In this document: positions 3,610 to 50,150 of the stretch, in pieces | How positions within the stretch are numbered: position 1 is the first letter of the stretch | How the letters are laid out: every line of letters begins with the position of its first letter | Source of the DNA: Candidatus Daviesbacteria bacterium | Lineage (GTDB): Bacteria > Patescibacteriota > Microgenomatia > Daviesbacterales > UBA10151 | NCBI GenBank assembly: GCA_016176465.1 | Contig: JACOXD010000010.1 | Coordinates: 7,497 to 71,496, forward strand | DNA: 64,000 nucleotides | Direction of reading: 5' to 3' | Position numbers and translations under genes: made by a program | The notes under the pieces: model-generated | Database searches by the model: none | What the model was told of the DNA's origin: nothing | What the model saw: the letters and a program-made list of their open reading frames with translations, nothing else

Positions 3610-5091
3610 GTGACAAGATCGAACAAATATCTCCTACTAATTCTCATTACTTTACTAGCAGCGCTACTTCGTTTAAACAACTTTCAATACGAATATGGTT
3701 TCTACGGCGATCAAGGACAGGATTTATTAGCAATTAATGATTGGATTAGAACTAATCAGGTTCCACTTCGGGGAATACTTACAAGTATCGGAAGTTTTTA
3801 TAATGGGCCAATCTATTACTACTTGATTTTTCCCCTAGTAATTTTTTTTGACGGTGATCCAATTGCGCCAGTAATTCTTTTTTTGATTGCAGGAATTCTC
3901 ACTACCCCCTTGGTATTTTACATGGTTGAAAAGTATGTTGATTCCTGGACTGCATTTATTAGCTCGGTACTTATTGCTCTCTCCTCTCATACAATCTTTA
4001 TATCTAAAGGAGCTTATGCACCTAACCTGCAAGTTTTTATATTTATTCTAATGTTTTATTTTTTCTTAAATTTTATTAAAACTGATAAAGCATTAAGTTT
4101 ATTCCTAGGATATCTGGTTATAGGAGTTGGTGTACAGTTTCACTATACGTTTTTTGCAAACCTATTTAGTTTTAGTTTGTTGCTTTTAATTTTAAAAAGA
4201 AAGAAAATAGTTTCAGCTAGGATGATACTATGTGCGATTGGAGGATTTTTACTAACCTTACTCCCTTTTATACTGGGCCAGTTTTTTTATAACTTCGCAG
4301 ATTTCAAAGGTATGGCATCATATATCATAAACGGAAATGATCAATCAAGAATAATAACCTTTCAGAGCATTACAGATAGGTTGGTTTTCCCATTTTTAAT
4401 TTATTTTAGAGTTGAACTAGTTCCTTGGTTTCTAACCTATTTTTTAAAACCAATTTTTTTACTCATCTTAATATTATGTTTTGTTATTGGTTTTACAAAA
4501 AACAGACTAGCGTCTTTTACAAAAGTTGTTTTATTTATTTTTTTTGCGAGTTTAACTTTGGTAGTTGTAGGTAATTTAAATTTTTGGTGGTGGTATAACG
4601 ATTTCTATTCTCTTACATCAATTTTTATGCTAGCGATTGTCTGTTCATACCTTATTCAATATGGCAAATTAAAATTCCTTGGATTATTTATATTTTCTGT
4701 TTTAATATTTTGGGAAATCGTGGGACTACCCTTTGCATACGGAATTTTAAGATCACCTCAGATAGCAAAGGAGATAGCCAGTATAATTAAAGCAGACATT
4801 GCTAAAAATAAAGATAAAGAAAGTTACGGTATCCTGGCGTTAAATCCAATTGCTCCATCCCAAGGTTTTGAATATAGATATTTGCTTGAAAAAGATGGTT
4901 ACCGTACAAGAAATGCTGTGGATTTAGCGGATGCAGATTATGTGATTGTAGAGGGTAAGGAAAGTAGAGGCATTAAAATAGATACTAAGTTAAAGATTAA
5001 TAAAATAAATACTTTAAACTTTAATGATAAAAGTCTTTTAATTAAATACGGCGAAATTTATAAAGTAGAAAGAAATCAAGAAACCCAGTAG
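3610..5091 (+). CDS. GT-C fold glycosyltransferase, ArnT/PMT_2-like (family 39/83) polytopic membrane protein
   Basis: GTG start; >10 predicted TM helices; N-terminal loop motif YGDQGQD...; architecture of dolichyl/undecaprenyl-phosphate-sugar dependent transferases. Confidence 0.6.
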   Translation: MTRSNKYLLLILITLLAALLRLNNFQYEYGFYGDQGQDLLAINDWIRTNQVPLRGILTSIGSFYNGPIYYYLIFPLVIFFDGDPIAPVILFLIAGILTTPLVFYMVEKYVDSWTAFISSVLIALSSHTIFISKGAYAPNLQVFIFILMFYFFLNFIKTDKALSLFLGYLVIGVGVQFHYTFFANLFSFSLLLLILKRKKIVSARMILCAIGGFLLTLLPFILGQFFYNFADFKGMASYIINGNDQSRIITFQSITDRLVFPFLIYFRVELVPWFLTYFLKPIFLLILILCFVIGFTKNRLASFTKVVLFIFFASLTLVVVGNLNFWWWYNDFYSLTSIFMLAIVCSYLIQYGKLKFLGLFIFSVLIFWEIVGLPFAYGILRSPQIAKEIASIIKADIAKNKDKESYGILALNPIAPSQGFEYRYLLEKDGYRTRNAVDLADADYVIVEGKESRGIKIDTKLKINKINTLNFNDKSLLIKYGEIYKVERNQETQ

Positions 5092-6455
5092 TGGTTAAAA
5101 TACATAACGGCAAGTAGACTCATTAATGTTAAAAAAATAAAAGTTCCTATCTTTTGCAAATATTCATTTCTGATCATTCCAAAAATAATAAATAAGGGAA
5201 AAATAACTAGGGCATATCTATGAATTGCGATAAGGGTCCCTGAGAATAAGGGTAAGCTAAATGCAAGCAAATAAAAAATACTGTAGGAGTATCTTAATTT
5301 ATAAGTAGAAAATAAAAGACCAACTAGCAATATACTAAATGAAAAAAATTCTATAATAGAGTGGGCAGTCCAAGGTATAGTAAATATGTTTTTGGCAATT
5401 AAAAAATTAAAGTAAGATATTGGAGCCTCCCAAGGAAGAGATAATTTTCGATGCCAGTTCTCCTCGTTTGTTAAAAAACTAAATGGAGCATTAAATTCTA
5501 GGTGCATAAAGAAAAGATAACCTAAAAAAGGGATTATAGAAACTAAAATAAGGATTAAAGCTTTAGATAATACTGTATTAAAAATTAAATTATTTAGGAT
5601 AAATTCTAAAACAACCAAAGCTAAAATAGCTCCAGCGATGGGGAGAAGAAATGGTACGTAAATATCCATTGCTCCAACAATTGGCCAAAGTTTTAAGTTA
5701 ATAAATATTGTTTGAAGAGATTTTACAAAAAAGGTAAATATTAGAAAGTAGAGGAAAAATCTTCTTAATTTAGTTGAAAACAAGTATTTTAAACTAAATG
5801 GATGAGGATTTTTTAATAAATACTCCGCTAAAATCGCTATGATTACTGCGATGCCGATTAATCGGGTAACTGCTGCCAATCCAGCCAGAAAAAAGGCTAG
5901 CAACCATCTTTTGCTAGATTGGTTAGAGTTTAATCCAAGCTTTGCGGTTCTGGAAAAATAAAAAGCAGAGATTGTTAAAAATAAAAACAATGGTTCAGAA
6001 TAAACGGCACCTAAATAAAAACTGGTAGGAAAAATCAAAAGTGCAAAAATTGCTCTTTTGGCGATTGTTTGGTCAAAATCAATTAGGATGAGTTTATATA
6101 AGAAAAAAAGAGCAATTATTGTTGATAAGTTAGTAATAAGCAGACCTCCCCACAGGGAGGGAATTCCAAGGTGCATTAGGATATTTATTAGTAAAGGGAG
6201 TAAGGGGAAGAAAACTGTTTGGACGCTTTTATATCCTGCTTCGGCAATTCCTCTAAAATGTCCTCCGTCCCAGTTTGCCCAATGATTTAAGTATCTGACC
6301 TCTATGCTTGGAGTACCGTTCCCTTCATTTAAAAAATCAGGAAATTTATTAGGTAAAAGACTTACTCCAATAAAGGTAAGAAAAAGCAGTGCTACCCGCC
6401 ACCCAAGAAATATCAAAACTACATATTTTAAAATTCCAAGATTTTCTTTTGACAA
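5076..6455 (-). CDS. Polytopic integral membrane protein, putative GT-C glycosyltransferase (GT87/DUF2029-like)
   Basis: ~12 hydrophobic segments, conserved loop W..GGHF.GIAEAGY; convergent overlap with 3610-5091. Confidence 0.45.
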   Translation of the reverse strand: MSKENLGILKYVVLIFLGWRVALLFLTFIGVSLLPNKFPDFLNEGNGTPSIEVRYLNHWANWDGGHFRGIAEAGYKSVQTVFFPLLPLLINILMHLGIPSLWGGLLITNLSTIIALFFLYKLILIDFDQTIAKRAIFALLIFPTSFYLGAVYSEPLFLFLTISAFYFSRTAKLGLNSNQSSKRWLLAFFLAGLAAVTRLIGIAVIIAILAEYLLKNPHPFSLKYLFSTKLRRFFLYFLIFTFFVKSLQTIFINLKLWPIVGAMDIYVPFLLPIAGAILALVVLEFILNNLIFNTVLSKALILILVSIIPFLGYLFFMHLEFNAPFSFLTNEENWHRKLSLPWEAPISYFNFLIAKNIFTIPWTAHSIIEFFSFSILLVGLLFSTYKLRYSYSIFYLLAFSLPLFSGTLIAIHRYALVIFPLFIIFGMIRNEYLQKIGTFIFLTLMSLLAVMYFNHYWVS

Positions 6456-6481
6456 CTTAAGAAGGATTATATATTAAAATT

Positions 6482-7015
6482 TTATGGAGTATACTTAAAA
6501 GATTTTGCAATTTGATCAAGATCATCATAGAGCTCTTTAGAGGAGGTAGAGAGTTTATAGACAAAATTGTCAGAATATATAAAATAAATCTTCTCACCAG
6601 TGGGAGAGACATCTGTAGACTTGTAAATACGCACAGAACTTTGATACTTATTGATTTTAATTTCTTTCTTTTCTAAAACTTCTAATTTGGTTACTTTATC
6701 AAAATTGTCTAAATAGCTGACAAGATCATTAAATTGTGTCCCGTTCCTATTTACATATATTTTTCCGTCCGGTGAAGTAAGTATTAATCTAGAAGTTTCC
6801 TCTTTCATATTAAATTCTGGGGGAACATCTAGCTGGAGTTTCAGATTTGAGGAAGAAAATAAATCATGCTTCTGAGTGGAGTTATTTAGAGAACTACTTG
6901 TGCTTCCATTTAATGTTTGGCTATCTTCTTTTTTGTTAAGTAAATTTTGCTTACTATAAACACTTAATAATCCAAAAAGGAAGATTATCCCGATAATTAT
7001 AAAAATAAATTTCAT
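6482..7015 (-). CDS. Hypothetical membrane-anchored secreted protein
   Basis: N-terminal TM/signal anchor MKFIFIIIGIIFLFGLL; Ser/Asn-rich linker. Confidence 0.4.
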   Translation of the reverse strand: MKFIFIIIGIIFLFGLLSVYSKQNLLNKKEDSQTLNGSTSSSLNNSTQKHDLFSSSNLKLQLDVPPEFNMKEETSRLILTSPDGKIYVNRNGTQFNDLVSYLDNFDKVTKLEVLEKKEIKINKYQSSVRIYKSTDVSPTGEKIYFIYSDNFVYKLSTSSKELYDDLDQIAKSFKYTP

Positions 7016-7088
7016 TACGAGTAACTATATTTAAGTGTACCTTTTTCTTTAAAAAACATATAATATTTTTATTCCAAAGTAATTACCT

Positions 7089-9432
7089 TTATTCTGTATG
7101 ATCATGAGGAACAATAATAGGTATTTCCTCAATATTTTCATTTCCCGCCAAATCTCTTGCTATCAATCTTATTATATACACCCTACCATCTTTATCACCA
7201 CCTTTTCTTTTTGCTGGTAGTTGAATGATATCTTGGAAGTTGGTTGCTACTATTTTAGTTGAATCGAATTCGTGGTACTCATCGTCAATCTCCAAAGTTG
7301 TGCTATCAAAATGTTGATCATTACTACTCCCTGTTATATTAATATCTGCCATCTCTCCTGAGGGTGGCCAGAGGATTTTAGGGTTTGCATCTAAAGAAGC
7401 TTCAGGTTGAGTTTTATCAATGTTAAACTCTATTGTTTTCACTTCTTCTAAATTCTCATCGTTATCAACAGAGTAAAATTCAACTCTATGATTGCCCTCA
7501 TTACTAAAAACCAGCGGTGGGCTATATCTTTCCCAATCACCACCTTCTACTTTGAACAAAGTGTAATCTACCCCTAAGCCACTATCATTAGATTCTAAGA
7601 GCACTTCTACATCAGACCTAAACCAGTTTTCCTGACCTTTTTCTCCTTTTAATTTGGCTGTAGTAGTTGGTGCTTCAGTATCTATTCTTTCAGCCAATAA
7701 AGCAAAATAGCTAAAGTGATTTAAATTGGCAACTGCAGTTTTATTATTTAAATTAACAGTGGTTTGCTCTTTAACCCAATTTTTTCCATCTGGGCTGGAA
7801 TATATAGAAATTGTATTTGGGTCAATATTAGAAATATCTTGATTATTAAAGTTGACAGTTAGAGTATAGATACTATTAAACTGATCAACTATATTACCAA
7901 AGCCATTTAATGCGCTCGCAAATAAAGAAGTTCCTATGGAGATGAGATTGTTAGAAGTCTTAGTTGTGGGAGCAGATTCCAATTTTATATCTAAATCATC
8001 ATTTGTCGCCCCTGAGGGAAAATTTAAGTTAAATTTTTCTAAGTTAAAAACCCCACCGTTACTAGTTAACTTGCTATTAAGATTATCTATTTGTTTTTTC
8101 CATAAATAATAGCTTTTAGATCCAGACCTATTTTTGCCTCCGTAGGAAAAAGTATAATTTTCCCATGGGTCGAGTTCGCTGCTTTGCCAGCCAAAAGGAT
8201 CTATTACTCCATCAGGTAAATTATTTTCAAAATCGCCATCACCATCTTTATCATAAACAACCATAAAATGGATATGAGCACCTGTAGATTTACCAGTACT
8301 GCCAGTTAATCCAATCTGTTCCCCTGCCTTTACATCAACATTATCGTTGGGATCACTAATGATAAGTTCTTTTGCTAATAGGTGGTAATATCGAGTTTGG
8401 AAACCGTTACCGTGATCTATTAAAATGGTATTGCCGCAAGCACCACAAGAATTCGTAAAACTTGCTTTTCCATCAGCTGCTGCTAAAACTGGGGTTTCTA
8501 GCGTTACTTTTGCAGGCTTGCCATAATCATAGCCATCATGTGAGGAATAGTCATCAGTAGATCTTGGTGGTCCCAAATAGCTAATTACAGAATTGCTTGA
8601 ACCTGATGGTTCTCCCAACCCACTACTTAGTAATGGATACTCATGGTCAAAAAAAGAATTAATTGATAAAGCAGCATCAGTAAAGGTAAGACCGCTAGAT
8701 TGATAATCCCAAGGTAGTTCTAAGAAAGGCTGAGGAGGAATATCTTTTACTCTAATATAATCTACAATAAAATTTGTCCAATCTGGTAGAGGAGGACCAA
8801 AATAGTCTGGATTTCCCATCCAAATGTATTGAACTTGTTCTGGAATTGGAAGGGAGGTATGAATTAATATATTATCAAGATAAATTCTATATATTATCAA
8901 GATAAATTCTATAAATTTGTTTATCCCTTTCAATTTTTAGTATATGGTCATTTGTATTTGTGGGACTTGTGTAAATACTACTCCCATTAAAATCTATTCT
9001 CATATTTGGACCGACAGATAGATCCTGCCAAACATTTATAGTTAGTAAAAGATCCACAGCTTCCCCATTTTTTGGTTCTTTTTCTGAAAGACCAATTCCA
9101 GTTCCCCAGTATGTAACTTTGGTATATCTAAATTTAATTTCAGCTTCAAAGTTAGAATTTGGCAAAGCATTCTTTGATACAGCTAGGGGGAATTTTGAAG
9201 TATTAAATTTCTGGGTAAAAAGTACAACCCCATTTGACTCTCTAATGGTGAAATTAAAAGGTTCATTATTTGGATAGACAGTCCACTTATTATTATCCAG
9301 GGTATTTACTGCTCTCTCAGTATTAAACTCATCGTTAAAATAATATTCCTGAGCAAAAACTTTTTTGGGCAATAGGATAACTAAAAATGAAGATAAAAAA
9401 ACAATCCAGATAAATTGTCTAATTCTGGGCAA
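7089..9432 (-). pseudogene. Secreted M23 (LytM-type) metallopeptidase with N-terminal GH16/ConA-like lectin domain and C-terminal Ig-like domains, split into two ORFs (8887-9432 and 7089-8933) by a 22-bp tandem duplication
   Basis: Signal peptide in 5' ORF; DEFN..W GH16-like motif; M23 motifs IDHGNGFQTRYYHL and GAHIHF in 3' ORF; both ORFs share YRIYLDNI encoded by the duplicated 22-mer; removing one copy restores one ~780-aa frame. Confidence 0.65.
8869..8912. repeat. Perfect 22-bp tandem duplication (ATATTATCAAGATAAATTCTAT x2) causing the frameshift in the M23 peptidase gene
   Basis: Read directly; 22 is not a multiple of 3. Confidence 0.9.
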
Positions 9433-9546
9433 TTTAATTTAATCTTCTATCCAAATAAACCTAAAGTCAATATAATTACTTTTGGTTTTGGAATTTTTCA
9501 CTGAAGCACTATACATCAGCCAGCTCTTAGTATTAAAATTTAGCTT

Positions 9547-10536
9547 ATGGTAAATCAAGTTATTAAAGTTAAAAACTTAAGAAAATATTACAAGGTTCAC
9601 CAAAAAGAGCCTGGCTTAATTGGTTCTATAAAGTCTTTTTTCAGTAGGAAATATTATGATGTCAAAGCAGTAGAAAATGTCTCCTTTACCATAGATGAAG
9701 GAGAGCTGATTGGGTTTATTGGGCCAAACGGTGCAGGTAAAACTACAACCTTAAAAGTTCTATCTGGATTGCTTTATCCAACCTCAGGAGATGTATCAGT
9801 TTTAGGATATGAACCTTTCAAAAGACAAAGCGAATTTCAAAAACAATTTTCCTTAGTAATGGGTCAAAAAAACCAGTTATGGTGGGATCTGCCTCCTTGG
9901 GAGAGTTTTATTTTAAATAAAGAGATTTATGAAATTCCAGAAGAACAGTTTAAAAAGACAGTTGAGGAGCTCTCAAGAATGTTGGAAATTACTGATATTT
10001 TAAAAATCCAAGTTAGAAAGTTGTCTTTAGGACAGAGAATGAAAGCAGAGCTTGTGGCAGCGCTACTTCACAATCCCAAAGTTTTATTTTTAGATGAACC
10101 AACAATTGGTTTAGATGTATTAGCCCAAAAAAAGATGAGGGATTTTATCAAAGAGTATAATCTTAAATTTAATGCAACAATTATTTTAACTTCTCACTAC
10201 ATGGGAGATGTCAGGGAGCTTTGCAATAGGGTAATTATTATTGATAAGGGGCAAATATTATATGATGGTTTACTTGATGATATAGTCCAAAAATTTGCCC
10301 CTTATAAAGTTATTAAAGCTGATTTAGAAAAAGAAGTTGATGAAAAAAAATTATCAGGGGTTGGAGAGGTAAAAGAGTATCGAGACCTTCAAGTAATTAT
10401 TCATGTACCAAAAGATGAGGCAAGTAAGAAAGCTGCTAAACTTTTGGGGAAGTTTCCCGTAGCTGATTTAACAATTGAGGATCCTCCTATTGAAGATATA
10501 ATTAGAACTGTTTTTTCAAAGGGAATGGATATATGA
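9547..10536 (+). CDS. ABC transporter ATP-binding protein (ABC-2 type exporter)
   Basis: Walker A GPNGAGKTT, signature LSLGQRMK, Walker B LLFLDEPT. Confidence 0.85.
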   Translation: MVNQVIKVKNLRKYYKVHQKEPGLIGSIKSFFSRKYYDVKAVENVSFTIDEGELIGFIGPNGAGKTTTLKVLSGLLYPTSGDVSVLGYEPFKRQSEFQKQFSLVMGQKNQLWWDLPPWESFILNKEIYEIPEEQFKKTVEELSRMLEITDILKIQVRKLSLGQRMKAELVAALLHNPKVLFLDEPTIGLDVLAQKKMRDFIKEYNLKFNATIILTSHYMGDVRELCNRVIIIDKGQILYDGLLDDIVQKFAPYKVIKADLEKEVDEKKLSGVGEVKEYRDLQVIIHVPKDEASKKAAKLLGKFPVADLTIEDPPIEDIIRTVFSKGMDI

Positions 10537-10811
10537 CAAAACCTAAAGAAGATAAAAAATTTACTGTTCCAGAATCAATCATCAAGAACCTTTTAACCCC
10601 CTCTGAAATTAGGATGGTGAAAAATAGATATTTTATCATCCAGCTTTTATCTGAAGGTTTATCAATCAGGAGCGTTGCAAAAAAAGCAAAGGTAGGAACA
10701 GATACTGTTGTTAGAGTTGCCAGATTGATGGAGAAAAGCAACCTTAAAAAAAATATAGTAGTGAAAAAAACCTCAAAGACTTCTTGGGTTTTTGGCAAGG
10801 GTAATGAATAA
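10533..10811 (+). CDS. TrpR/YerC-YecD-like small DNA-binding protein
   Basis: 92 aa; HTH pattern SIRSVAKKAKVGTDTVVRVAR typical of TrpR-related YerC/YecD family; overlaps both neighbours by 4 and ~20 nt. Confidence 0.55.
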   Translation: MTKPKEDKKFTVPESIIKNLLTPSEIRMVKNRYFIIQLLSEGLSIRSVAKKAKVGTDTVVRVARLMEKSNLKKNIVVKKTSKTSWVFGKGNE

Positions 10812-11598
10812 ATATTTGGCGGTCTTCAAAATTAACTGGGAGAATGCCTTGGTTTATAGACTCAACTTTTCTTTATGGAGAGTGCGCTCAGTATTGCAAT
10901 TACTTTTAGTTTACTTTATTTGGTTTAGTGTTTTTCAATCACAACAAAGAATTTTTGGCTATGATCAAAGTTCGATATTAACTTATATTTTAATAGCGGC
11001 TTTGGTTAGGGCAATAGTTTTATCATCCCGGGTAATGGATGTGGCCAATGTAATTAACGAAGGGAGTGTTGCCAATTTTTTTCTAAAACCCATAAGTTTT
11101 ATTGGGTATTATTTTATCAGAGATCTCTCTGATAAGTTATTAAATATTTCTTTTGTTATATTTGAGCTCGCATTAATTCTTTTTCTTCTTAAACCCTCAA
11201 TTCTTATCCAAAAAAATTTATCTATTCTAGCCCTTTTTTTATTAGCCGTTTTTTTAGGGTTATTTCTATTTTTTATAATTTCTTTTATTGTAGGTTTAAT
11301 GTCATTTTGGGTAGAAAATTCTTGGGGTTTGTTTTTTTTAATGTATATATTCCTTGAAACTTTTGGAGGAGGAATATTCCCAATAGATATTTTGCCAAGT
11401 CCCTATTCTCAAATATTTTTAATCGCCCCATTTCCTTATCTTCTTTATTTCCCTGCCAAAATATACTTGGGAACACTCGCAGTCCCAGAGCTCGTTAAAG
11501 GCTTTTTTATTCTTTCTTTTTGGATAATTGTTTTGTATTTTTTAATGGTTAAACTTTATCGCGCTGGTATAAGGCAATACAGCGCTGTTGGTCATTAA
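10792..11598 (+). CDS. ABC-2 family transporter permease
   Basis: 6 TM segments; follows ABC ATPase; TTG start (alternative ATG at ~10804). Confidence 0.6.
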   Translation: MARVMNKYLAVFKINWENALVYRLNFSLWRVRSVLQLLLVYFIWFSVFQSQQRIFGYDQSSILTYILIAALVRAIVLSSRVMDVANVINEGSVANFFLKPISFIGYYFIRDLSDKLLNISFVIFELALILFLLKPSILIQKNLSILALFLLAVFLGLFLFFIISFIVGLMSFWVENSWGLFFLMYIFLETFGGGIFPIDILPSPYSQIFLIAPFPYLLYFPAKIYLGTLAVPELVKGFFILSFWIIVLYFLMVKLYRAGIRQYSAVGH

Positions 11599-11599
11599 A

Positions 11600-12388
11600 A
11601 TGAAAAAATTCTATAAATATTTAAAGGTTTGGTGGATCTATGCTGTTAATACTTTACAAATTCAATTGGTTGTTCGCTGGGCAGTTGCCCTCTTCTTAAT
11701 AGCTAAACTTTTAAGGTTTGGAATATTCTTATTTTTTATTATTATTTTAGTTTCTCAGACTAGAGTTTTAGCAGGATACAGTTTGGATCAAACAATACTA
11801 TTTTTTTTATCTTTTAACTTAGTTGATATCTTAGCTCAAATGTTATTTAGGGAAGTATATCGATTTAGGCAAGCGATAGTTTCAGGAACTTTTGATTTTT
11901 ATTTAATGAAGCCGATTAATGTTTTGTTTAGGTCACTCCTTGGAGGACCTGATATTATTGATTTTATTACTTTAATTCCCTTAATTTGGGCAATAGTATA
12001 TTTTATTAATAGTTTAGATATTTCTTCCATAAATTTATTTATCTATATATTTCTTATAATTGCTGGATTTATTATTAGCATGGCCTTTCATATACTAGTT
12101 TTATCTTTGGCTGTTGTGACAACAGAAATAGATAGCGCAGTGCTTTTATATAGAGACGTCTCCGGAATGGGAAGAGTGCCAATTGATATTTATAAGGAAC
12201 CTATTCGGGGACTGTTAACTTTCGTGATTCCTGTTGGAATTATGATGACATTCCCCACTAAATCACTACTCGGATTGCTTTCTCCGCTAAGTATTTTATA
12301 TGCTTTTTTGTTTTCAATTGTATTTTTATTTACATCCTTAAAAGTTTGGCATCAAGCTGTATTAAAATATTCCTCCGCCAGTAGTTAA
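11600..12388 (+). CDS. ABC-2 family transporter permease (second subunit)
   Basis: 6 TM segments; ATG immediately after stop of previous permease (alternative TTG at 11588). Confidence 0.6.
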   Translation: MKKFYKYLKVWWIYAVNTLQIQLVVRWAVALFLIAKLLRFGIFLFFIIILVSQTRVLAGYSLDQTILFFLSFNLVDILAQMLFREVYRFRQAIVSGTFDFYLMKPINVLFRSLLGGPDIIDFITLIPLIWAIVYFINSLDISSINLFIYIFLIIAGFIISMAFHILVLSLAVVTTEIDSAVLLYRDVSGMGRVPIDIYKEPIRGLLTFVIPVGIMMTFPTKSLLGLLSPLSILYAFLFSIVFLFTSLKVWHQAVLKYSSASS

Positions 12389-13644
12389 AAAGGATTTTTT
12401 GTTAAATTAGTAAGGAAAAAATATTCAAGTAGGTTTTTTGGTAAAGGAATGCCAACTAAAATTGGAAAGGTAAGTAAAAATCCAAATAAAATCAAAAATA
12501 AAAGTAAAGTAGCATATTTTTTGTAAGAGTTATTTTCATATAAATGGTTTAGTTGATACCCAAGTGCTAAAGATAAAAAAGGAATTGAAGGGCTATAATG
12601 ATAAAGAAACATTATGCGTGGGGAAAAAGCCCAAGGAAGTAAAAAAACAAAATATCCCGCCAATATAATGAATAAGGCAAAAGACCTTCTTCTTAAAAAC
12701 TCAATAAATGAAAGTATTATTGCAACAACTCCACTGTAAAAAACGACTATATTACCAGATGCAAAAATATTAGAAATTGAATTTTTATGATAATCAACAA
12801 AATACCAAACCGGGTATAAATTAAATGGCCAGCTCCACCAAGGTGAAGAATAATCATGGGAGGCTTTTAAGCCGGTATGATACCAGAACATTTGTTTTTG
12901 CAGCTCTATAAATTGGGAAAAATTATGACCAAGTGTAAAAAAAGGAATATAAGTTATTAAATAAATGGCTGGCGGTATAGAAAGAAAGTAGATTAATTTT
13001 TTTAGAAAATTAAGATTTATTTTTTTGCTATGGTTTTGAAAGGTAAATATTAAAAAAAGGAATAAATAAAGATAGAGGGCGCTCCATTTTGAGGAAAGAG
13101 ATAAGCCTAAAAAAACAGAAGAAAGAAAATACTTTTTTTTAAAAAAAAATAGTAAACAAAAAAGCGCAAACGTTATAAAATAAATATCATTCATTCCTAT
13201 CCTTGATTGGACAAAATTTAATCCGTCAAAGGAAAATACAAATGCAGAAAATAAAGCCAAAGTAGTATTTTTAAAAAGAAATGAGGCTATTTGATATATT
13301 AATAGAATAGAAATTAATCCAAGGATTACACCCGGAATTCTCCATGCCCAAGCATCAGTTGATTGAAGTACAAACATGGAAGCAGTCATTATTTCTTTTG
13401 CTAGTGGTGGATGAGTCCACTCAAAAGCAACATCTTCAGGAGGCTTTGTCCACCACTCCCAGGCTTCTTTTGACCCCTTTAAATACTCCTTGGCTGTAAA
13501 TGCGTGATAAACCTCATCAAATACGAAAGAGTTGGGATAATCCAGCCTAAAAAAGCGCAAAAAAGCACTAAACAATATAAGAATCACTAACAGTTTTTTT
13601 ACTCGTAGGAAACCTCTGAATATAGAGAGTTTATTTTTTAGCAT
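12385..13644 (-). CDS. GT-C glycosyltransferase family 39 (protein O-mannosyltransferase PMT-like)
   Basis: Loop-1 motif FVFDEVYHAFTAKEY (catalytic DE of GT39) followed by many TM helices. Confidence 0.65.
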   Translation of the reverse strand: MLKNKLSIFRGFLRVKKLLVILILFSAFLRFFRLDYPNSFVFDEVYHAFTAKEYLKGSKEAWEWWTKPPEDVAFEWTHPPLAKEIMTASMFVLQSTDAWAWRIPGVILGLISILLIYQIASFLFKNTTLALFSAFVFSFDGLNFVQSRIGMNDIYFITFALFCLLFFFKKKYFLSSVFLGLSLSSKWSALYLYLFLFLIFTFQNHSKKINLNFLKKLIYFLSIPPAIYLITYIPFFTLGHNFSQFIELQKQMFWYHTGLKASHDYSSPWWSWPFNLYPVWYFVDYHKNSISNIFASGNIVVFYSGVVAIILSFIEFLRRRSFALFIILAGYFVFLLPWAFSPRIMFLYHYSPSIPFLSLALGYQLNHLYENNSYKKYATLLLFLILFGFLLTFPILVGIPLPKNLLEYFFLTNLTKNPF

Positions 13645-14860
13645 AGACTTCTTTTATAATGATAATTGTAACTAAATAAAAAATAACTGTTGAGAGTAGT
13701 GATAATATTTTGGAATAATCCTGCGCAAAAAAGTATAGAAAAGGTATATATAGAACTTTTGGCAAACTTAAGTAAAATTCATTGTAATAAATATAAACAT
13801 AATAAAGATTTAAGAAATGGATTAAAGATAAAATAAAATAAAGCAAAATAAGCCACTTATTTTTTATTTGAATTGCAAAAATTATTAAAAATATTAGGGC
13901 TGGGTAAAGATATCTTTCATGGACTCTAGTTGGTAAGAAAAAAAAGCTTAAGAAAGCCAAAGTGGAAAGACTGAAAAAGAAAAACTTTCTTTTGAAATAA
14001 GAATAAAAAATAATCAGCCAATAAAATATTAACAATATATAACCCCAGTGCTTATAAGAGATACCCTGCCAGATTGTTGAATCATTAATCCAAAATCCAA
14101 TCATGCCCCAAAAATTGTATGCATAAAGACTAATGAATTGATAATCTTCAACCATTCTAAAAAAAAGTTTCCAGATTCCCAATATAGGCTCAGATGGAAA
14201 AAAAGGAAGTGATAGAAAAAAAATGACAGCTATTGAAGACAAAGTTAATTGCAAAAAATGCCTTAAGCTTGGATATTTTAACAGATAAAAACAATAAACA
14301 GGAACTAACGCAATAGCTTGGGGTTTAATTAATATGGCTAATGCAATAAAAATTGAGGAAAGAGTAAGCCTTTTTGAATTTAAATAATAGATACTTAGAA
14401 ATAAAAATAAAGTTAAAATGGAATCAATTTGTCCCCAAATACTACTATTAAATAAAAATGCTGGATTAAATAAAACTACGATTGCAGCAAATAGCGCCAG
14501 CTTTTTCTTTCCCAATAGCTTAAATACTAAAAATGCAAGAATTAAATCTGCAATGATTGCCGGCATTTTTAATAAGTAGTAAAAGTTATAATCAGTAATA
14601 CTAAAAAAATTTTTAAAAGCACCTAAAAAAGCTAAGATGTATAAATACCCTGGAAGATAATTTGTCCAAACCTCATCTGAGTAAAATTTAGAAAACCCGA
14701 ACTCATTTAATCTAACTGCCCAGGCAAACCATGCACTCATATCAATCACCATCCCTGGGAGTGTTGCTAAAGTAAGTCTAATAATTAAAGCAACTATAAA
14801 AACAAATATCGTAATTTTTGCCATCTTTGACAATTTAGAACAAAAAAAGGAAATATTCAA
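13631..14860 (-). CDS. GT-C fold glycosyltransferase-like polytopic membrane protein
   Basis: ~11 TM helices, loop motif FYSDEVWTNYLPGY; adjacent and overlapping with GT39 gene. Confidence 0.5.
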   Translation of the reverse strand: MNISFFCSKLSKMAKITIFVFIVALIIRLTLATLPGMVIDMSAWFAWAVRLNEFGFSKFYSDEVWTNYLPGYLYILAFLGAFKNFFSITDYNFYYLLKMPAIIADLILAFLVFKLLGKKKLALFAAIVVLFNPAFLFNSSIWGQIDSILTLFLFLSIYYLNSKRLTLSSIFIALAILIKPQAIALVPVYCFYLLKYPSLRHFLQLTLSSIAVIFFLSLPFFPSEPILGIWKLFFRMVEDYQFISLYAYNFWGMIGFWINDSTIWQGISYKHWGYILLIFYWLIIFYSYFKRKFFFFSLSTLAFLSFFFLPTRVHERYLYPALIFLIIFAIQIKNKWLILLYFILSLIHFLNLYYVYIYYNEFYLSLPKVLYIPFLYFFAQDYSKILSLLSTVIFYLVTIIIIKEVYAKK

Positions 14861-14868
14861 TCTATAGA

Positions 14869-16125
14869 GTGAATACGTTATTATCTACAGTAATGAATAT
14901 GTTAGTCAAAAAATCTTGGATTTTATACTTACCTTTTTTAACACTTGGAATATTGATATTTCAATCCACACTCCCTTTGTGGTTTGGACATATTTCTACA
15001 GATACTTATGTCTATTATAATAGAGCAAGCTATTTTTTTAACAATCTTAACCTGGCTGATTTCGAGGGAAATGAGCATCTGCCAGGAGCAATCATTTATT
15101 TTATTTTAGCAACCCCTGCATTTTTCTTTAAGTCAACTTGGGAAAGTTATGTTTGGGGCTTTATAACTGTCAATTCAATTGCCACTTTAATAATAGATTT
15201 TTTTATTGCAAAAATTGCAGGATTAAAAAATATATTATTTTTATCCTTAATTTTATTATCAGTTGGCCCGATCTCTCTTTTTAGGTTTGATCTTTTAGTT
15301 GTTTTATTAACTATAATTTCTTTCTATTTTTTTATAAAAGAAAAAAATTTAAAATCTGCTTTCTTTCTTGGAAGTGCAACTTTAGTAAAAATATACCCAG
15401 TAATTTTTTTACCCTATTTACTCTATTTAATATATAAAAAACAAAATATTTTAGAAACTCTTAAATTTTTTTCTACTTATATATTAAGCCTAGTAGGTTT
15501 ACTGTGGCTTTATGTGCTTTTTTTTCAAGTTAGCATGGAAAATATTCTATTTAGTCTAACTTTTCATACATTAAAACCGGTACATACAGAGAGTCTTTGG
15601 ACAACCATCTTAACTATCTATTCGTATCTGGTTAATAATACTTACCCTGAAATTGTTAGTGCCTGGGGAATAAATGGGTTAGCAGAAAAATATTGGCTAC
15701 TACCGCTTTGGTTTTACAACTACGCCTGGGTTTTACCTGTGGGATTGTTTTATATATGGCTTCTTAAAAATAGAAAAAAATTTGAAAATTTTGATATTAG
15801 GATACCAATCTTGATTGTTTTACTTTTTTTAATATTCTCTAAAGTGCTGTCTCACCAATATCTTCTTTGGTTTTTATTACTAATTCCCCTTTTAAACTAT
15901 AAAAGATTAATGAGTAGAGCTTGGATTGTAAATATTTTTTTAATCCTACTAACTAATCTATTACATCAATATATTTATCCTTTAAATTACACACAATTCT
16001 TAAATGATTATTACAACCATAATGTTCTTTCAAGCTATTTATTTTGGCTAAATGCTTTAAGTAATTTAATTTTAGTGATTATTTTTTGGAGAATTTTTAG
16101 GGAAATAAAAATTAAAGATGATTAA
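14869..16125 (+). CDS. Polytopic membrane protein, putative GT-C glycosyltransferase (GT87/DUF2029-like)
   Basis: ~12 TM helices; same architecture as 5076-6455. Confidence 0.45.
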   Translation: MNTLLSTVMNMLVKKSWILYLPFLTLGILIFQSTLPLWFGHISTDTYVYYNRASYFFNNLNLADFEGNEHLPGAIIYFILATPAFFFKSTWESYVWGFITVNSIATLIIDFFIAKIAGLKNILFLSLILLSVGPISLFRFDLLVVLLTIISFYFFIKEKNLKSAFFLGSATLVKIYPVIFLPYLLYLIYKKQNILETLKFFSTYILSLVGLLWLYVLFFQVSMENILFSLTFHTLKPVHTESLWTTILTIYSYLVNNTYPEIVSAWGINGLAEKYWLLPLWFYNYAWVLPVGLFYIWLLKNRKKFENFDIRIPILIVLLFLIFSKVLSHQYLLWFLLLIPLLNYKRLMSRAWIVNIFLILLTNLLHQYIYPLNYTQFLNDYYNHNVLSSYLFWLNALSNLILVIIFWRIFREIKIKDD

Positions 16126-22746: not shown

Positions 22747-23463
22747 ATGAGAGATGAAATTGGAGAATTAGTAAAAGCAAACGTGAGAGATTATGTAGCC
22801 CAACAGGGATCATTAGAACGTTGTGGACTATGTTGTGTTGTTATTCCTACTGGAACTTTTTCAAAAGGTGGAATGGTGTGTAAAGATCTATCTGTAAGTA
22901 CTGGCATTGCAGTATGTCAAATTTATGCTTCAAGACCAGCTGGTTGCCGACAGTTCGACTGTGGTAACTGCAAAGGACAATTTGAAAGACTTGATCATCT
23001 TGTATTAGAAGCTTTAGGTGGTCTAAAAAGTGCAGTTTACTATCACGAATATGAAGAAGGTTACTCAGAAACTGAAGCCATACCTAAAGCGATTAAGGAT
23101 ATGGCAAGGCTAGATTTATTAAGATTTTCACCAACAGTTTTAGGTTTAATAGAAGATGTCGAACTTACTAATAGAACTGCACCAGCTATTTGGGCTTTGG
23201 TAAGACCAGGCCGCCTTGGAGGAGTAGCACTACCAGATGATATTGTAATGGATTGCTTGGGGGTAGACACTTTCTTGAGAAATACTTCTGTAGCTGGAGC
23301 AAGAGAAACTTTAGTTTTTTCCAGGATGGTCGTTGCTAATGGGAACTCAAGTCCAAATGGTTTGTGGAGACCTGTTGAGAATTTAGTTGCCAGAGGATTA
23401 GGTTTAGGAAATAATGCATTCGCAAATTCCAATATTGGTGACCTATTATATGAAACAGGTTAA
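22747..23463 (+). CDS. YkgJ-family cysteine-cluster (CxxCxxCC) protein with uncharacterised C-terminal domain
   Basis: N-terminal ERCGLCCVV...C...C..C.C..C; K-poor C-terminal half; overlaps aroA start. Confidence 0.5.
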   Translation: MRDEIGELVKANVRDYVAQQGSLERCGLCCVVIPTGTFSKGGMVCKDLSVSTGIAVCQIYASRPAGCRQFDCGNCKGQFERLDHLVLEALGGLKSAVYYHEYEEGYSETEAIPKAIKDMARLDLLRFSPTVLGLIEDVELTNRTAPAIWALVRPGRLGGVALPDDIVMDCLGVDTFLRNTSVAGARETLVFSRMVVANGNSSPNGLWRPVENLVARGLGLGNNAFANSNIGDLLYETG

Positions 23464-24730
23464 AAGTCTAAGAATAAGAAAACTTAAAAAGATACTCTCT
23501 AAAAAAATCTCTATCCCTGGTTCAAAAAGTTATACCAATAGAGCTCTAATTTTAGCAGCTTTAACTAAAGGTAAAGTAGAAATTATTAATCCTTTATTTA
23601 GTGATGATACAGAGGCGATGATTGATTGTATAAAAAAATTAGGGATAAAAGTAGAAAAAAAGGAGGGTGATTTAGTAGTCTATGGATCTTTTAGTGATGT
23701 TAAGAATAAAATATTTAAATTAAATTGCAGACTTTCGGGAACTACTATTAGGTTTTTGCTGGCTTTTAGCTGTATTGTGCGAGGGATTGAAATTTTATTC
23801 GGAGAGAAAAGTTTAAATAAAAGGCCTATCAAAGAGTTAGTAGATGGGTTAATAAAGTTAGGAGCAAAAATTGAATATATAAATAAGGTAGGTTATCCTC
23901 CCATCAAAGTTAGCTCATCAAGCTTAAATGGAAAATCGACTCAACTTAAAGGTGATATAAGTAGCCAGTATTTCTCAGCGATTTTAATGATTGCACCAGT
24001 GGTGGGAAAAATGACTATTAATGTTTTGGGTAGGCAAATATCCAAGCCCTATATAGATATGACCATTGATACCATAAATAAGTTTGGGGGGAAAGTAAAA
24101 AATAATAAATATAGACAATATATTATTCCTAGAAAACAGAAATATAAAGCTAAAAAATACCTAGTGGAAGGAGATTATTCATCAGCAGGATATTTTTTTG
24201 CAATTGCAGCTTTAGCTAAAAGCAACCTAACTTTAACAAACTTAAATAAAGATTCCCTGCAAGCTGATAAAAAATTATTAGAGATTTTAGGAAAAATGGA
24301 CAACCAGGTAGTTTATGAAAAAAATGGCATCACCATAAAAGGAAAAGGGGTTAAACCAATTAGCACTGATATGGAGGACTGTCCTGACCAAATCCAAACT
24401 GTTGCAGTGATGAGTGCCTTTGCTGATGGGGAAACACAAATTAGAGGAGTTAGTAGCTTGCGAATTAAAGAAACAGATAGGGTAGCTGCGCTGCAAAACG
24501 AATTAGCTAAGATGAAAATTAAAACTAAAGCAAACAAAGATACATTATTAATATATGGGGGAAGTCCCAAGGCAGCATCGATTGATACCTATAATGATCA
24601 TCGCATGGCAATGTCTTTTGCCATAGCCTCCTCCAGGCTAGATGGAATGGTAATAAACAATCCTGAAGTTGTCTCAAAAACATTCCCACAATATTGGGAG
24701 AAATTAAAAGAGATAGGATTTAATTTATGA
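23450..24730 (+). CDS. aroA: 3-phosphoshikimate 1-carboxyvinyltransferase (EPSP synthase)
   Basis: ISIPGSKSYTNRALILAAL, LNCRLSGTTIRFL motifs; ATG at 23450 chosen over upstream ORF-track start. Confidence 0.9.
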   Translation: MKQVKSLRIRKLKKILSKKISIPGSKSYTNRALILAALTKGKVEIINPLFSDDTEAMIDCIKKLGIKVEKKEGDLVVYGSFSDVKNKIFKLNCRLSGTTIRFLLAFSCIVRGIEILFGEKSLNKRPIKELVDGLIKLGAKIEYINKVGYPPIKVSSSSLNGKSTQLKGDISSQYFSAILMIAPVVGKMTINVLGRQISKPYIDMTIDTINKFGGKVKNNKYRQYIIPRKQKYKAKKYLVEGDYSSAGYFFAIAALAKSNLTLTNLNKDSLQADKKLLEILGKMDNQVVYEKNGITIKGKGVKPISTDMEDCPDQIQTVAVMSAFADGETQIRGVSSLRIKETDRVAALQNELAKMKIKTKANKDTLLIYGGSPKAASIDTYNDHRMAMSFAIASSRLDGMVINNPEVVSKTFPQYWEKLKEIGFNL

Positions 24731-25230
24731 AAATTATATTAATTGGTTTTATGGGTTCTGGTAAAACAACTGTTGGTAAGGAGTTGGCTAAAAGATTAGG
24801 GGTAAAGTTAATTGATACTGATTCTTTAGTAATTAGAGCATCTGGAAGAAAAAGTATAAAGGAAATTTTTCAAAAAGATGGGGAAATTAGGTTTAGAGAG
24901 TTGGAAATCGAAGTTGCCAAAGAAGTTGCTATGCGAAAAGAAGATCTGGTTGTGGCAACAGGAGGGGGAGTCGTTTTGAACAAAATTATTTTGGATTACT
25001 TAAAAAAAGAGGGAGTAGTTGTCTACCTTGAGGCCTCTTTTAAGGAAATTGCCAAAAGATTAGAAGGTTTTAAAGATAGACCTTTATTTAAAAATTTAAA
25101 AGATGCGAGAAGGCTTTATCTGCTTCGAAAAATACTCTATCGCAGCTATAAAGATATTAAAGTTTTCACAAATAATAAAGATATAAATGAGATTGTTGAT
25201 AATATAATGAAAAAAATAAGGATTTATTAA
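24727..25230 (+). CDS. aroK: Shikimate kinase
   Basis: P-loop GFMGSGKTTVGK; size 167 aa. Confidence 0.85.
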   Translation: MKIILIGFMGSGKTTVGKELAKRLGVKLIDTDSLVIRASGRKSIKEIFQKDGEIRFRELEIEVAKEVAMRKEDLVVATGGGVVLNKIILDYLKKEGVVVYLEASFKEIAKRLEGFKDRPLFKNLKDARRLYLLRKILYRSYKDIKVFTNNKDINEIVDNIMKKIRIY

Positions 25231-36526: not shown

Positions 36527-36816
36527 TTTTCTATTTTATACGAAATTTTAAATAAAGCATGCCAAACATTTTTAATTACCTCTTCGTTTATTCCAAGGGC
36601 TCTCGCCTCTATAATTAAGGTATTAATCTTAGCCTTCTCTCTACTTGGATCCTTTACTTCTTTACCATTTATTTTTTTTATTTTCCCGATTTTTTCGACT
36701 ACTATTATTCTTTTTTTCAGTAACTTTAGAATTTTTTTGTCTATTTGATCAATATCTTTTCTATATTTACTTAAACTATCCATTAAACTGCTCCTAAAAT
36801 CTTGGTTACCGGGCAA
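36523..36816 (-). CDS. Chorismate mutase (AroQ class)
   Basis: 97 aa; IDQIDKKILKLLKKR.. helix typical of CM_2. Confidence 0.7.
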   Translation of the reverse strand: MPGNQDFRSSLMDSLSKYRKDIDQIDKKILKLLKKRIIVVEKIGKIKKINGKEVKDPSREKAKINTLIIEARALGINEEVIKNVWHALFKISYKIEK

Positions 36817-39271: not shown

Positions 39272-39282
39272 ATTTTTCCATT

Positions 39283-39304
39283 AAAAAACCTCCCATGAGG
39301 GAGG
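39283..39304 (-). promoter_or_regulatory. CCUCCC-UCAU-GGGAGG hairpin + U6 located 17 nt upstream of DAHP synthase start (minus strand)
   Basis: Read directly; member of the recurring anti-SD/SD hairpin family. Confidence 0.45.
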
Positions 39305-48318: not shown

Positions 48319-48377
48319 ACTCTTAGCTAGTAATCAGGTACCTTCTTTGATAAAATTTACATAGCTAAATTAACATT

Positions 48378-50149: not shown

Positions 50150-50150
50150 T

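Follow-up and report, generated by a model that had tools for sequence, protein, structure and literature searches.

Five GT-C glycosyltransferase genes of Candidatus Daviesbacteria: a probable variable island around a conserved two-gene unit

Genes of the locus

The window, the whole 64,000-nt stretch of DNA that was analysed, carries the following features between positions 3610 and 16125:

3610..5091, + strand: A, accessory GT-C of the PMT_2/ArnT-like kind, 493 aa (PMT_2 above the gathering cut-off, GA)
5076..6455, - strand: B, accessory GT-C, PIG-V (GT76)/PMT_2-like, 459 aa (PIG-V and PMT_2 matches)
6482..7015, - strand: p177, small protein with an N-terminal anchor (sequence reading)
7089..9432, - strand: secreted M23 peptidase gene, in two ORFs (M23 and OmpL47-type domains)
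8869..8912, - strand: perfect 22-bp tandem duplication, 2 x ATATTATCAAGATAAATTCTAT on the + strand, which frameshifts the peptidase gene
9547..10536, + strand: ABC ATPase with a DrrA-like nucleotide-binding domain (ABC_tran)
10533..10811, + strand: Trp-repressor-like HTH protein, 92 aa (PF01371)
10792..11598, + strand: ABC permease 1, PF06182 family (ABC2_membrane_6)
11588..12388, + strand: ABC permease 2, PF06182 family (ABC2_membrane_6)
12385..13644, - strand: C, PMT (GT39-like) enzyme, 419 aa, without MIR domain (PMT and PMT_4TMC)
13631..14860, - strand: D, GT-C, GT87/ALG6-like, 409-aa ORF, 397 aa in NCBI (profile and AF2)
14869..16125, + strand: E, accessory GT-C, PIG-M/PimE-like, 418-aa ORF, 408 aa in NCBI (profile and AF2)

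The five ORFs A to E were found exactly where a first, sequence-only reading had placed them, and their GT-C nature, also proposed there, was borne out by Pfam for A, B and C and by family profiles and AF2 models for D and E. All five are thus GT-C enzymes and none is a transporter. The description of these transferases as paralogous did not hold, as BLASTP showed no pairwise similarity (best E 0.004) and the proteins belong to different GT-C families. The five genes were distributed over four transcription units shared with the HU, MiaA and peptidase genes. The A gene begins 13 nt downstream of the HU gene, B is the final gene of the minus-strand unit peptidase-p177-B, and E is divergent from D and overlaps the start of miaA. 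In Candidatus Daviesbacteria, the site is fixed on the chromosome, with RecX-RNaseY-HU on one side and MiaA-AI-2E on the other.

The C and D proteins

C is a genuine PMT (GT39-like), with scores of 53.7 bits for PMT, 77.4 for PMT_4TMC and 43.6 for PMT_2. Its family profile matched yeast Pmt1 (6p25_A) at 5.6e-14, and in the profile alignment the D43-E44 pair of its FVFDEVYHA motif corresponded to the catalytic DE of Pmt1 (VVFDEVH), in agreement with the GT39 catalytic motif recognised in the sequence-only reading. The N-terminus of C is positively charged and hence cytoplasmic, so that the DE motif faces outward. Against the NCBIfam Pmt equivalog, C scored 56.8, far under the cut-off of 800. 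C is a candidate initiating protein O-mannosyl/glycosyl transferase.

D alone gave a single Pfam signal, GT87 at 20.2 bits, under the GA of 25. Its family profile matched GPI mannosyltransferase I at 1.4e-9, and the top ~30 structure matches of its AF2 model (pLDDT 88.6) were all GT-C proteins, the best being yeast ALG6 (TM 0.73). It is possible, though rather unlikely, that D is a catalytically dead scaffold dimerising with C, as proposed for Rv0051/ML2687c, elongation, if any, being left to E, A or B. A mycobacterial GT87-like Pmt partner without catalytic residues, acting like Pmt2, has been described (bioRxiv 10.64898/2026.07.15.738315), and the score of D under the GT87 cut-off points the same way. 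The D family, however, keeps a near-invariant D40 where the first outer helix begins, together with many invariant polar residues (R50, K98, N138, K179, Q181, R312, H314 and R316), a pattern that would be typical of an active GT-C site. An Asp equivalent to D40 was also present in the Chloroflexota fusion described below (one sequence read).

The D gene and the start of C share 14 nt, and D is translationally coupled to C. The two genes were adjacent, overlapping and co-directional in 28 of 28 Daviesbacteria loci, and no further GT-C gene was found among the scanned ORFs of the remaining 51 kb of the window. Together these two observations indicate that the GT-C clustering is not due to chance. 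The Daviesbacteria synteny, which shows gene order within one order of bacteria, is partly inheritance, and the sole independent support for a C-D unit comes from a gene fusion in Chloroflexota. In a set of about 50 loci, ~47 uninterrupted ORFs, each of ~1250 aa, were D-C fusions with the D part first (GT87, PMT and PMT_4TMC in Pfam). The PMT module of the fusion carries a ~290-aa insert matching WD40/beta-propellers (1.1e-6). In 42 loci a 240-aa GT2 (PF00535) gene, putatively of the donor-synthase type, was located two genes upstream, the intervening gene encoding another polytopic membrane protein. This combination of fusion, propeller and GT2 matches the mycobacterial complex in which Pmt co-purifies with a GT87-like Rv0051 homologue and a beta-propeller; GT39-GT87 fusions also exist in Paenibacillus (bioRxiv 10.64898/2026.07.15.738315).

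Accessory GT-Cs and a proposed pathway

Among the five GT-Cs only D->C is constant; the accessory genes A, B and E vary between loci. A scored 28.2 bits for PMT_2 (GA 26.1) and belongs to a family of 2150 homologues whose first outer loop contains the invariant residues D34 and D38. The ~720-aa homologues were GT2+PMT_2 fusions in five of five cases tested, which ties the A family to polyprenyl-phosphate sugar donors. No A homologue was found at E<1e-5 in 29 related loci. B matched PIG-V (38.2 bits, GA 22.4) and PMT_2 (37.8 bits), shows the invariant motif N61-W62-D63-G64-x-H66 in its first loop, gave no match in a sequence search of the PDB and had orthologues in six of the 29 loci. E alone matched nothing in Pfam or NCBIfam. 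Within its family of 22 members, 15 matched GT87 and 10 matched PIG-M; the family profile matched GPI-MT-I at 4.6e-7, and the AF2 model (pLDDT 92.4) matched GPI-MT-I (TM 0.63), PIG-U and PimE. The E slot is filled in other genomes by E (an orthologue in 2/29 loci), an E-like protein (6/29), an unrelated membrane family 'F' or a PMT_2 protein.

On balance, and with modest confidence, we read the whole region as an island of GT-C glycosyltransferases whose content varies around a single conserved two-gene unit, D->C. C-D is likely a protein O-glycosylation core with accessory GT-Cs, and not part of one ABC-centred pathway. An O-mannosylation-like function at the outer side of the membrane, which the sequence-only reading had extended to the whole set, is the best reading for this core; for the set as one ABC-centred pathway it was not supported.

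Beyond the observed family and fold assignments, DE alignment, synteny and fusion, we infer that C and D would form a membrane heterodimer, as in yeast Pmt1-Pmt2 or mycobacterial Pmt-Rv0051. With a polyprenyl-phosphate sugar as donor, C would attach the first hexose (probably mannose) to Ser/Thr residues in secreted or envelope proteins. D would either lengthen the glycan, a task carried out in mycobacteria by the GT87 enzyme PimE, or present the acceptor. The lineage-variable A, B and E may attach additional sugars or work on different acceptors. The GT2 donor synthase and any flippase would be encoded elsewhere in the genome. Neither the 64,000-nt window nor any of the 29 related loci was found to contain a gene for a GT2 donor synthase or a GtrA-type flippase, so that use of a lipid-linked donor is deduced solely from family membership. 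A GT87 role for D has its counterpoint in the best fold match, since ALG6 is a glucosyltransferase whose substrate is a lipid-linked glycan, and in the low GT87 score.

The GT-Cs, C-D included, could instead act on non-protein acceptors, either glycolipids/lipoglycans, for which PimE, PIG-M and PIG-V might serve as models, or wall polymers, with YfhO and ArnT-type enzymes as possible models. GT-C/PMT_2 enzymes do also modify lipids and wall polymers, PMT_2 members that act on lipid A or teichoic acids among them; similarity to the lipid-directed mannosyl/glucosyl transferases PIG-V, ALG6, GPI-MT-I and PimE was seen for B, D and E, and the low equivalog score of C fits as well. We nevertheless regard this as unlikely, as C shows the complete PMT + PMT_4TMC domain architecture and its DE motif is aligned, the Chloroflexota beta-propeller falls in the position class of the protein-acceptor-recognition domains of mycobacterial and yeast PMTs, and no characterised GT39 enzyme is known to act on lipid.

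The proposed protein O-glycosylation core resembles actinobacterial O-mannosylation (Ppm1, Pmt Rv1002c, the GT87 enzymes PimE/Rv0051 and the beta-propeller Rv3212) in combining a short, MIR-less DE-motif PMT with a GT87-like GT-C, to which the Chloroflexota relatives add the beta-propeller and neighbouring GT2. The actinobacterial order is Ppm1 (GT2), then Pmt (GT39), then the GT87 PimE (PMC12757957). In contrast, D seems to have retained a catalytic-type Asp, while Rv0051 is reportedly inactive; the best fold match of D is ALG6; the window is devoid of Ppm1, beta-propeller and DivIVA-like partner; and the host is a CPR bacterium without a mycolate envelope. The eukaryotic Pmt1-Pmt2 heterodimer (GT39, PDB 6p25) shares PMT + PMT_4TMC, the aligned DE and the two-GT-C unit, but D belongs to another GT-C family instead of being a second GT39, and C, without MIR domains, is about half the length (419 vs ~800 aa). 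The three-component extracytoplasmic glycosylation systems GtrA/GtrB/GtrC and CsbB-GtcA-YfhO also comprise GT-Cs using polyprenyl-phosphate monosaccharides outside the membrane, and the GT2 synthase fusions of the A family recall these systems. However, the window contains no GT2 or GtrA gene, and the acceptors of those systems (teichoic acids for CsbB-GtcA-YfhO) are polysaccharides, not proteins. E, D and B are similar in fold or profile to the ER-lumenal GT-Cs (PIG-M GT50, PIG-V GT76, ALG6 GT57) and PimE (GT87), but sequence identity is 13-18% and D and E lie under the Pfam cut-offs. Bacteria are not known to make GPI or N-glycan precursors, so D, E and B must have acceptors other than those of the ER-lumenal enzymes.

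The ABC transporter and the peptidase gene

The ABC ATPase scored 99.4 bits for ABC_tran and 212.8 bits against TIGR01188 drrA, under the drrA family cut-off. The permeases scored 75 (permease 1) and 125.7 bits (permease 2) for ABC2_membrane_6, and permease 1 matched KpsM at chance level (E 0.037). Membership of the Wzm/TagG family (PF01061) was rejected for both, which are PF06182; the ABC-2 exporter of the sequence-only reading is thus real as an ATPase with two permeases but not as a Wzm/TagG-type transporter. Separate ATPase and membrane subunits in an ABC-2-type architecture are shared with Wzm/Wzt and TagGH; the differences are two distinct PF06182 permeases, no detected Wzt-type C-terminal domain, no cytoplasmic polymer-assembly genes and an optional association with GT-Cs. 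Permease 2 has 1539 homologues, and the best 120 of these were all from Microgenomates (60-72% identity) and named only 'ABC-2 family transporter protein'. Titles and abstracts of the papers listed for PF06182 pointed to no characterised member. The Trp-repressor-like HTH gene (PF01371, 40.8 bits) is nested in the ABC operon, alike in L007, L010, L011, L022, L032, L086 and L087, and remains beside C in loci without ABC genes.

A single pathway, with the ABC transporter as exporter or flippase of a lipid-linked glycan or a polyprenyl-phosphate sugar and the five GT-Cs as the enzymes that transfer it outside, would agree with the physical proximity of the genes and with permeases more conserved than the GT-Cs. 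It would also agree with an ABC operon that abuts GT-C genes both in 7 of the Daviesbacteria loci and in a different Microgenomates lineage (L086, where DUF2298, two genes for PMTs, DUF2079 and a sugar epimerase lie nearby), and the actinobacterial polyprenyl-phosphate-sugar flippase is yet to be named (PMC12757957). Such a pathway is very improbable given that the permeases are PF06182, that the operon and C-D are transcribed convergently and not together (the stops of permease 2 and C overlap), that 22 of the 29 related loci lack the ABC genes while none lacks C-D, that the window has no cytoplasmic glycan-assembly genes, and that no ABC ATPase was found within 10 kb of the ~50 Chloroflexota fusions. 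In the other seven loci the ABC system always occupies one inherited backbone position; since all ABC-bearing loci share the RecX-RNaseY-HU backbone, the associations are not independent. The transporter looks like an optional passenger beside D->C; both it and the M23 peptidase would owe their place next to the system to inheritance and are not demonstrated parts of it.

p177 gave no significant Pfam match and has a Ser/Thr/Asn-rich stretch; that it could be a glycosylation acceptor is only a guess. The peptidase gene product is a secreted lectin-like/M23 protein with an OmpL47-type barrel (M23 66.9 bits, OmpL47-type domain 55.6 bits). The GH16-lectin part of its earlier description found no counterpart, the N-terminal domain having no Pfam or NCBIfam match even with a repaired reading frame, while the M23 part stood. 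The two ORFs are one gene split by the 22-bp tandem duplication: deleting one repeat copy restores a single 773-aa ORF, and the homologue in L007 is intact and reads through at the duplication point.

GT-C genes in a variable island

The five large ORFs at the centre of the cluster seen by the sequence-only reading were all recovered at exactly the coordinates it had assigned. The window has a GC content of about 33%, and housekeeping genes are found in it (RecX, RNase Y, HU, MiaA, the shikimate pathway, SecDF and tRNA synthetases). The features of the cluster are as follows, D and E being 100% identical to their NCBI entries.

Features of the GT-C region
3610-5091, plus strand: A, GT-C protein
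5076-6455, minus strand: B, GT-C protein
6482-7015, minus strand: p177, N-terminally anchored protein of 177 aa
7089-9432, minus strand: secreted peptidase gene
9547-10536, plus strand: ABC ATPase
10533-10811, plus strand: TrpR-like helix-turn-helix (HTH) gene, 92 aa
10792-11598, plus strand: ABC permease 1
11588-12388, plus strand: ABC permease 2
12385-13644, minus strand: C, PMT enzyme
13631-14860, minus strand: D, GT87-like protein (HYS91_04390)
14869-16125, plus strand: E, GT-C protein (HYS91_04395)

From their coordinates, the five GT-C genes are spread over four transcription units: HU followed by A (unit 1), the lectin-like/M23 gene followed by p177 and B (unit 2), D followed by C with a 14-nt overlap (unit 3), and E followed by MiaA and AI-2E (unit 4). 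The ABC operon, in the order ATPase, TrpR-like gene, permease 1 and permease 2, with every neighbour overlapping, is convergent to C. The GT-C/ABC region is not one operon.

Pfam matches, family profiles and structure models together identified all five proteins as GT-C enzymes, as had been claimed, and no indication that they are unrelated transporter families was seen in these checks. The suggestion that they are paralogous was not borne out. An all-against-all BLASTP of the five gave a best E-value of 0.004 and no significant pair. Recent paralogy was rejected, and the proteins fall into four or more GT-C families. Protein A passed the PMT_2 cut-off (PF13231) marginally, with 28.2 bits against a gathering cut-off of 26.1; its homologues matched PMT_2 repeatedly, D34 and D38 in the first loop were invariant, and its profile gave a weak match to AglB in the PDB (0.0041). 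An N-terminal extension of approximately 230-250 residues was present in seven of 150 A homologues among the matches listed. The five extended homologues scanned (P0184, P0187, P0204, P0236 and P0277) were all GT2+PMT_2 fusions of about 720 aa, which carry donor synthase and transferase on a single polypeptide. Because homologues of A are fused to GT2, the A family appears to be tied to lipid-linked monosaccharide donors. Protein B matched PIG-V (PF04188; 38.2 bits, cut-off 22.4), the match being limited to the N-terminal half of the model (4-214 of 443), and PMT_2 (37.8 bits); no solved relative was found in the PDB by single-sequence or profile searches.

Since D alone remained below the GT87 cut-off (PF09594; 20.2 bits against 25) and E alone matched nothing in Pfam or NCBIfam, PF05007 and PF09594 included, family alignments were built for both. 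Single-sequence PDB searches with D and E gave no match. The D family comprised 372 homologues, predominantly from Daviesbacteria, whose members matched GT87, PMT_2, ALG6 or PF26314; the GT87 cut-off was passed by many of them and by fusion proteins from Chloroflexota. The D profile matched GPI-MT-I in the PDB (1.4e-9). The closest fold to the AlphaFold model of D (pLDDT 88.6) was yeast ALG6 (GT57; TM 0.73, Foldseek), and only GT-C structures were present among the top 30 or so Foldseek matches. Within the E family (n = 22), GT87 was matched by 15 members and PIG-M by 10, the family profile found GPI mannosyltransferase I in the PDB (4.6e-7), and the AlphaFold model of E (pLDDT 92.4) matched GPI-MT-I (TM 0.63), then PIG-U and PimE.

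Scanning genomes with the D profile yielded 80 loci, the ORFs of which were searched with all the window proteins; 29 non-redundant loci formed the Daviesbacteria/Patescibacteria comparison set. A backbone, RecX-RNaseY-HU-(variable)-C-D-(variable)-MiaA-AI-2E-ChlI, was conserved across the 29 loci. D and C were adjacent and co-directional, D first, in 28 of the 28 loci holding both genes. The remaining components were scattered: the ABC operon was present in seven of the 29 loci, B in six, an E orthologue in two and E-like proteins in six. No homologue of A was found at E<1e-5 in these 29 related loci, and no other locus among them combined A, B, the ABC operon and the peptidase. The window contains the most expanded form of a variable GT-C island.

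In ten of the 29 loci, the slot beside D, which is that of E in the window, was occupied by F, a polytopic family absent from the window (for example L021:4584-5807, L012:8875-10065 and L007:8863-10065, numbered as loci of the scan). Its members are about 400 aa long and have no Pfam match, and hhalign related them weakly to D and E (probability 15-47%). F is probably another unannotated GT-C family, here termed "GT-C-like, unproven". Family F and proteins D and E, now annotated as "hypothetical" or DUF2029, can be renamed GT-C.

The PMT enzyme and its GT87-like partner

C scored 53.7 bits with PMT (PF02366; cut-off 22.7) and 77.4 bits with PMT_4TMC (PF16192; cut-off 32.4), and was also above the PMT_2 cut-off; its family profile matched yeast Pmt1 at 5.6e-14. 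The catalytic DE proposed within FVFDEVYHA was confirmed by the profile alignment, which placed D43-E44 of C on the catalytic DE of VVFDEVH in yeast Pmt1. These two residues were invariant in 19 of 19 family members. An outward-facing DE loop is predicted from the six K/R residues that precede TM1 at the N-terminus. Eukaryotic PMTs alone carry MIR domains in loop 5, and no MIR match was found by Pfam in the 419 aa of C. The actinobacterial Pmt is likewise devoid of MIR domains (10.64898/2026.07.15.738315). Against the NCBIfam equivalog PrMnsylTfPmt (NF058602), C scored 56.8 bits, below the cut-off of 800, a score that makes it a distant relative of the curated actinobacterial Pmt rather than its orthologue.

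In the D family, D40, at the start of the first outer helix, is near-invariant, and many basic and polar residues are invariant. This conservation suggests that D is active and not a scaffold.

Outside Patescibacteria, D and C were found as a single uninterrupted ORF of about 1250 aa, with approximately 47 such ORFs in about 50 Chloroflexota loci (L034-L084 of the scan; examples are L048:9857-13582 and L057:1094-4834). Limnocylindria predominate, with a GC content of about 70%; gene calls from these genomes were GC3-filtered, and stop-to-stop ORFs were swamped by spurious ones. The order within the fusion is D (positions of about 10-370), C (about 20-90, including the DE loop), an insert of about 290 aa, and C again (97-411). 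By Pfam the fusions contain GT87, PMT and PMT_4TMC, the D part reaching 41.6 bits with GT87 (cut-off 25). The insert, which follows directly on the DE loop in the PMT part, had no Pfam match, and its profile matched WD40/beta-propellers in the PDB (UTP4, 1.1e-6; Prp19, 3.3e-6; YncE, 1.7e-4). That a second phylum carries D and C joined, with D first as in the translationally coupled pair of the window, is strong evidence that the two act as one unit.

The surroundings of the fusion were also regular. An F gene was immediately upstream in 43 of 45 loci, and two genes upstream, in 42 loci detected by phmmer, was a 240-aa GT2 (PF00535, 94.9 bits; for example L063:8049-8771) of the polyprenyl-phosphate sugar synthase type. 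Downstream were an N-terminally anchored repeat protein of about 396 aa, which had no Pfam match and was beta-propeller-like by eye, a Ser/Thr kinase and a PP2C phosphatase. DnaA-DnaN-RecF is encoded a few genes away from the fusion locus. Judged by the common fusion architecture, the MAGs titled Udaeobacter, Bathyarchaeia and Saccharimonadales among the fusion loci look like mis-binned Chloroflexota contigs.

The ABC operon and the secreted proteins

The exporter had been compared with Wzm/Wzt or TagGH. Both permeases belong instead to PF06182 (ABC2_membrane_6) and not to PF01061, the permease family of Wzm/TagG, and their sole glycan-exporter match was KpsM (E 0.037, 14 bits). A single pathway centred on the ABC transporter is not supported: the operon is present in seven of the 29 loci, is convergent to C-D and is absent near the Chloroflexota fusions, no ABC ATPase being found within 10 kb of about 50 of them. 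An independent association of ABC and GT-C genes was considered and rejected. Three further ABC contexts occupied the identical backbone position, among them one from another lineage of Microgenomates, with DUF2298, DUF2079 and two PMT genes as neighbours, and every context retrieved (all from Microgenomates) lay on the RecX-RNaseY-HU backbone. Because this position is shared by all contexts, the adjacency is not an independent sign of a functional link. In the titles and abstracts of the PF06182 literature, nothing resembled a functional study. A flippase role for the PF06182 system is without specific support, and its annotation as a glycan exporter should be avoided.

Inside the operon, the TrpR-like gene follows the ATPase and precedes the permeases, its start and stop overlapping those of its neighbours, and this nesting is kept in at least seven other Microgenomates loci. 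In genomes devoid of the ABC genes it still adjoins the PMT gene, as if the ABC genes had been gained or lost on both sides of it.

The label "GH16-lectin" given to the secreted peptidase was not upheld either, so that from the cluster claim the GT-C genes stand, and the paralogy, the Wzm/TagGH likeness and the GH16 assignment do not. The N-terminal domain had no Pfam match at E<=1, even as a repaired domain of 236 aa, and no ExDxxE catalytic motif was seen on reading its sequence; it may have a jelly-roll fold. The ORFs 8887-9432 and 7089-8933 (minus strand) are one gene, interrupted at 8869-8912 by a perfect tandem duplication of 22 bp (two copies of ATATTATCAAGATAAATTCTAT). The resulting frameshift produces the two overlapping ORFs, and the peptide IYRIYLDNI is encoded in both halves. 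Deletion of one copy gave a 773-aa secreted protein composed of the unknown N-terminal domain, M23 and an OmpL47-type barrel. The duplication may mark a pseudogene, serve phase variation or be an artefact of assembly. A homologue at L007:15417-18053 has the same N- and C-terminal domains, but M23 is replaced by a lipase/LCAT/PGAP1-like alpha/beta hydrolase, which indicates domain swapping in this family of secreted proteins. Flanked by the peptidase gene and B, and co-directional with them, p177 shows a Ser/Thr/Asn-rich stretch (NGSTSSSLNNST...SSS) directly after its anchor, and it is conceivable that it is an O-glycosylation acceptor.

A model of the C-D unit

Protein O-mannosylation is usually associated with eukaryotes and Actinobacteria. 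In actinobacteria, Ppm1 (GT2) makes polyprenol-phosphate mannose, which is moved outward by an unknown flippase; Pmt (GT39) attaches the first mannose and the GT87 enzyme PimE then extends it (PMC12757957). The mycobacterial Pmt is reported to co-purify with the GT87-like Rv0051/ML2687c, for which an inactive, Pmt2-like role is proposed, with Rv3212, an eight-bladed periplasmic beta-propeller located above the active site, and with a DivIVA-like protein, and in Paenibacillus GT39 enzymes are fused to GT87 (10.64898/2026.07.15.738315). C-D of the window is the same pairing of a PMT with a GT87-like protein, in a CPR bacterium, and the Chloroflexota fusion is a single-chain analogue of the mycobacterial complex with the propeller built in. 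The pairing in the window also shows differences. D keeps D40, by which it would be active, and its closest solved fold is ALG6. In Daviesbacteria, neither a propeller nor a GT2 adjoins C-D. A search by Pfam of essentially all window ORFs of at least 100 aa, and by phmmer with the Chloroflexota GT2, revealed no GT2 synthase or GtrA flippase in the window, and none was present in the Daviesbacteria flanks; no beta-propeller is adjacent to C-D in the window. A BNR/sortilin-type protein is encoded at 59387-60442, 43 kb away from C-D.

The O-mannosylation-like reading put forward earlier holds for the C-D core and not as a single ABC-centred pathway. We propose a model based on the families and folds of all its parts, the DE alignment, the coupling of D to C, the synteny and the fusion. 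C and D would form a membrane heterodimer in which C, with its DE loop outward, would move a hexose, probably mannose, from a polyprenyl-phosphate sugar onto Ser/Thr of exported proteins. D would act in glycan extension or acceptor presentation, A, B and E would be extra transferases specific to the lineage, and the donor synthase and any flippase would be encoded elsewhere in the genome. A bolder version appears improbable to us: a PMT-centred multi-GT-C machine in Daviesbacteria, and also in Microgenomates and Chloroflexota, with an active D giving the heterodimer initiating and elongating sites, a swappable third GT-C (E, F or PMT_2) setting the glycan structure of each lineage, and PF06182, where carried, as the missing polyprenyl-phosphate-sugar flippase.

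In the proposed model, C-D is a bacterial PMT with a GT87-like partner, of a kind already known, and the novelty is its reach to CPR and Chloroflexota; a literature search for glycosyltransferase family 39 in Patescibacteria found nothing. A PMT/GT87-like unit in CPR, with a single-chain propeller form in Chloroflexota, would bring the pathway into very different bacterial groups, and the D-C fusion would lend independent support to the newly proposed heteromeric architecture of the bacterial Pmt complex. The surfaces of CPR bacteria mediate host attachment, and for this group the model points to surface-protein glycosylation with glycans that vary by lineage.

Other genes of the window were observed in passing. 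Rfam and tRNA scans of the window found nothing besides a tRNA-Gln (48377-48448), unconnected with the GT-C island and adjoined by a gene (47682-48236, minus strand) for a protein of 184 aa that contains a PaaX central Cas2-like domain (65 bits). The segments 23414-26313 and 35606-41226 encode EPSP synthase, shikimate kinase, chorismate synthase, a prephenate dehydrogenase/dehydratase fusion, DAHP synthase and a class IV aminotransferase, with an acetolactate-synthase-like TPP enzyme beside these aromatic amino-acid genes; CPR genomes are usually credited with less biosynthetic capacity than this set implies. Envelope copper/redox genes were located at 49787-52735 and 61461-63275 (a cupredoxin-like protein, a heavy-metal P-type ATPase, a DsbA-like thioredoxin and a DsbD_2-cupredoxin fusion).
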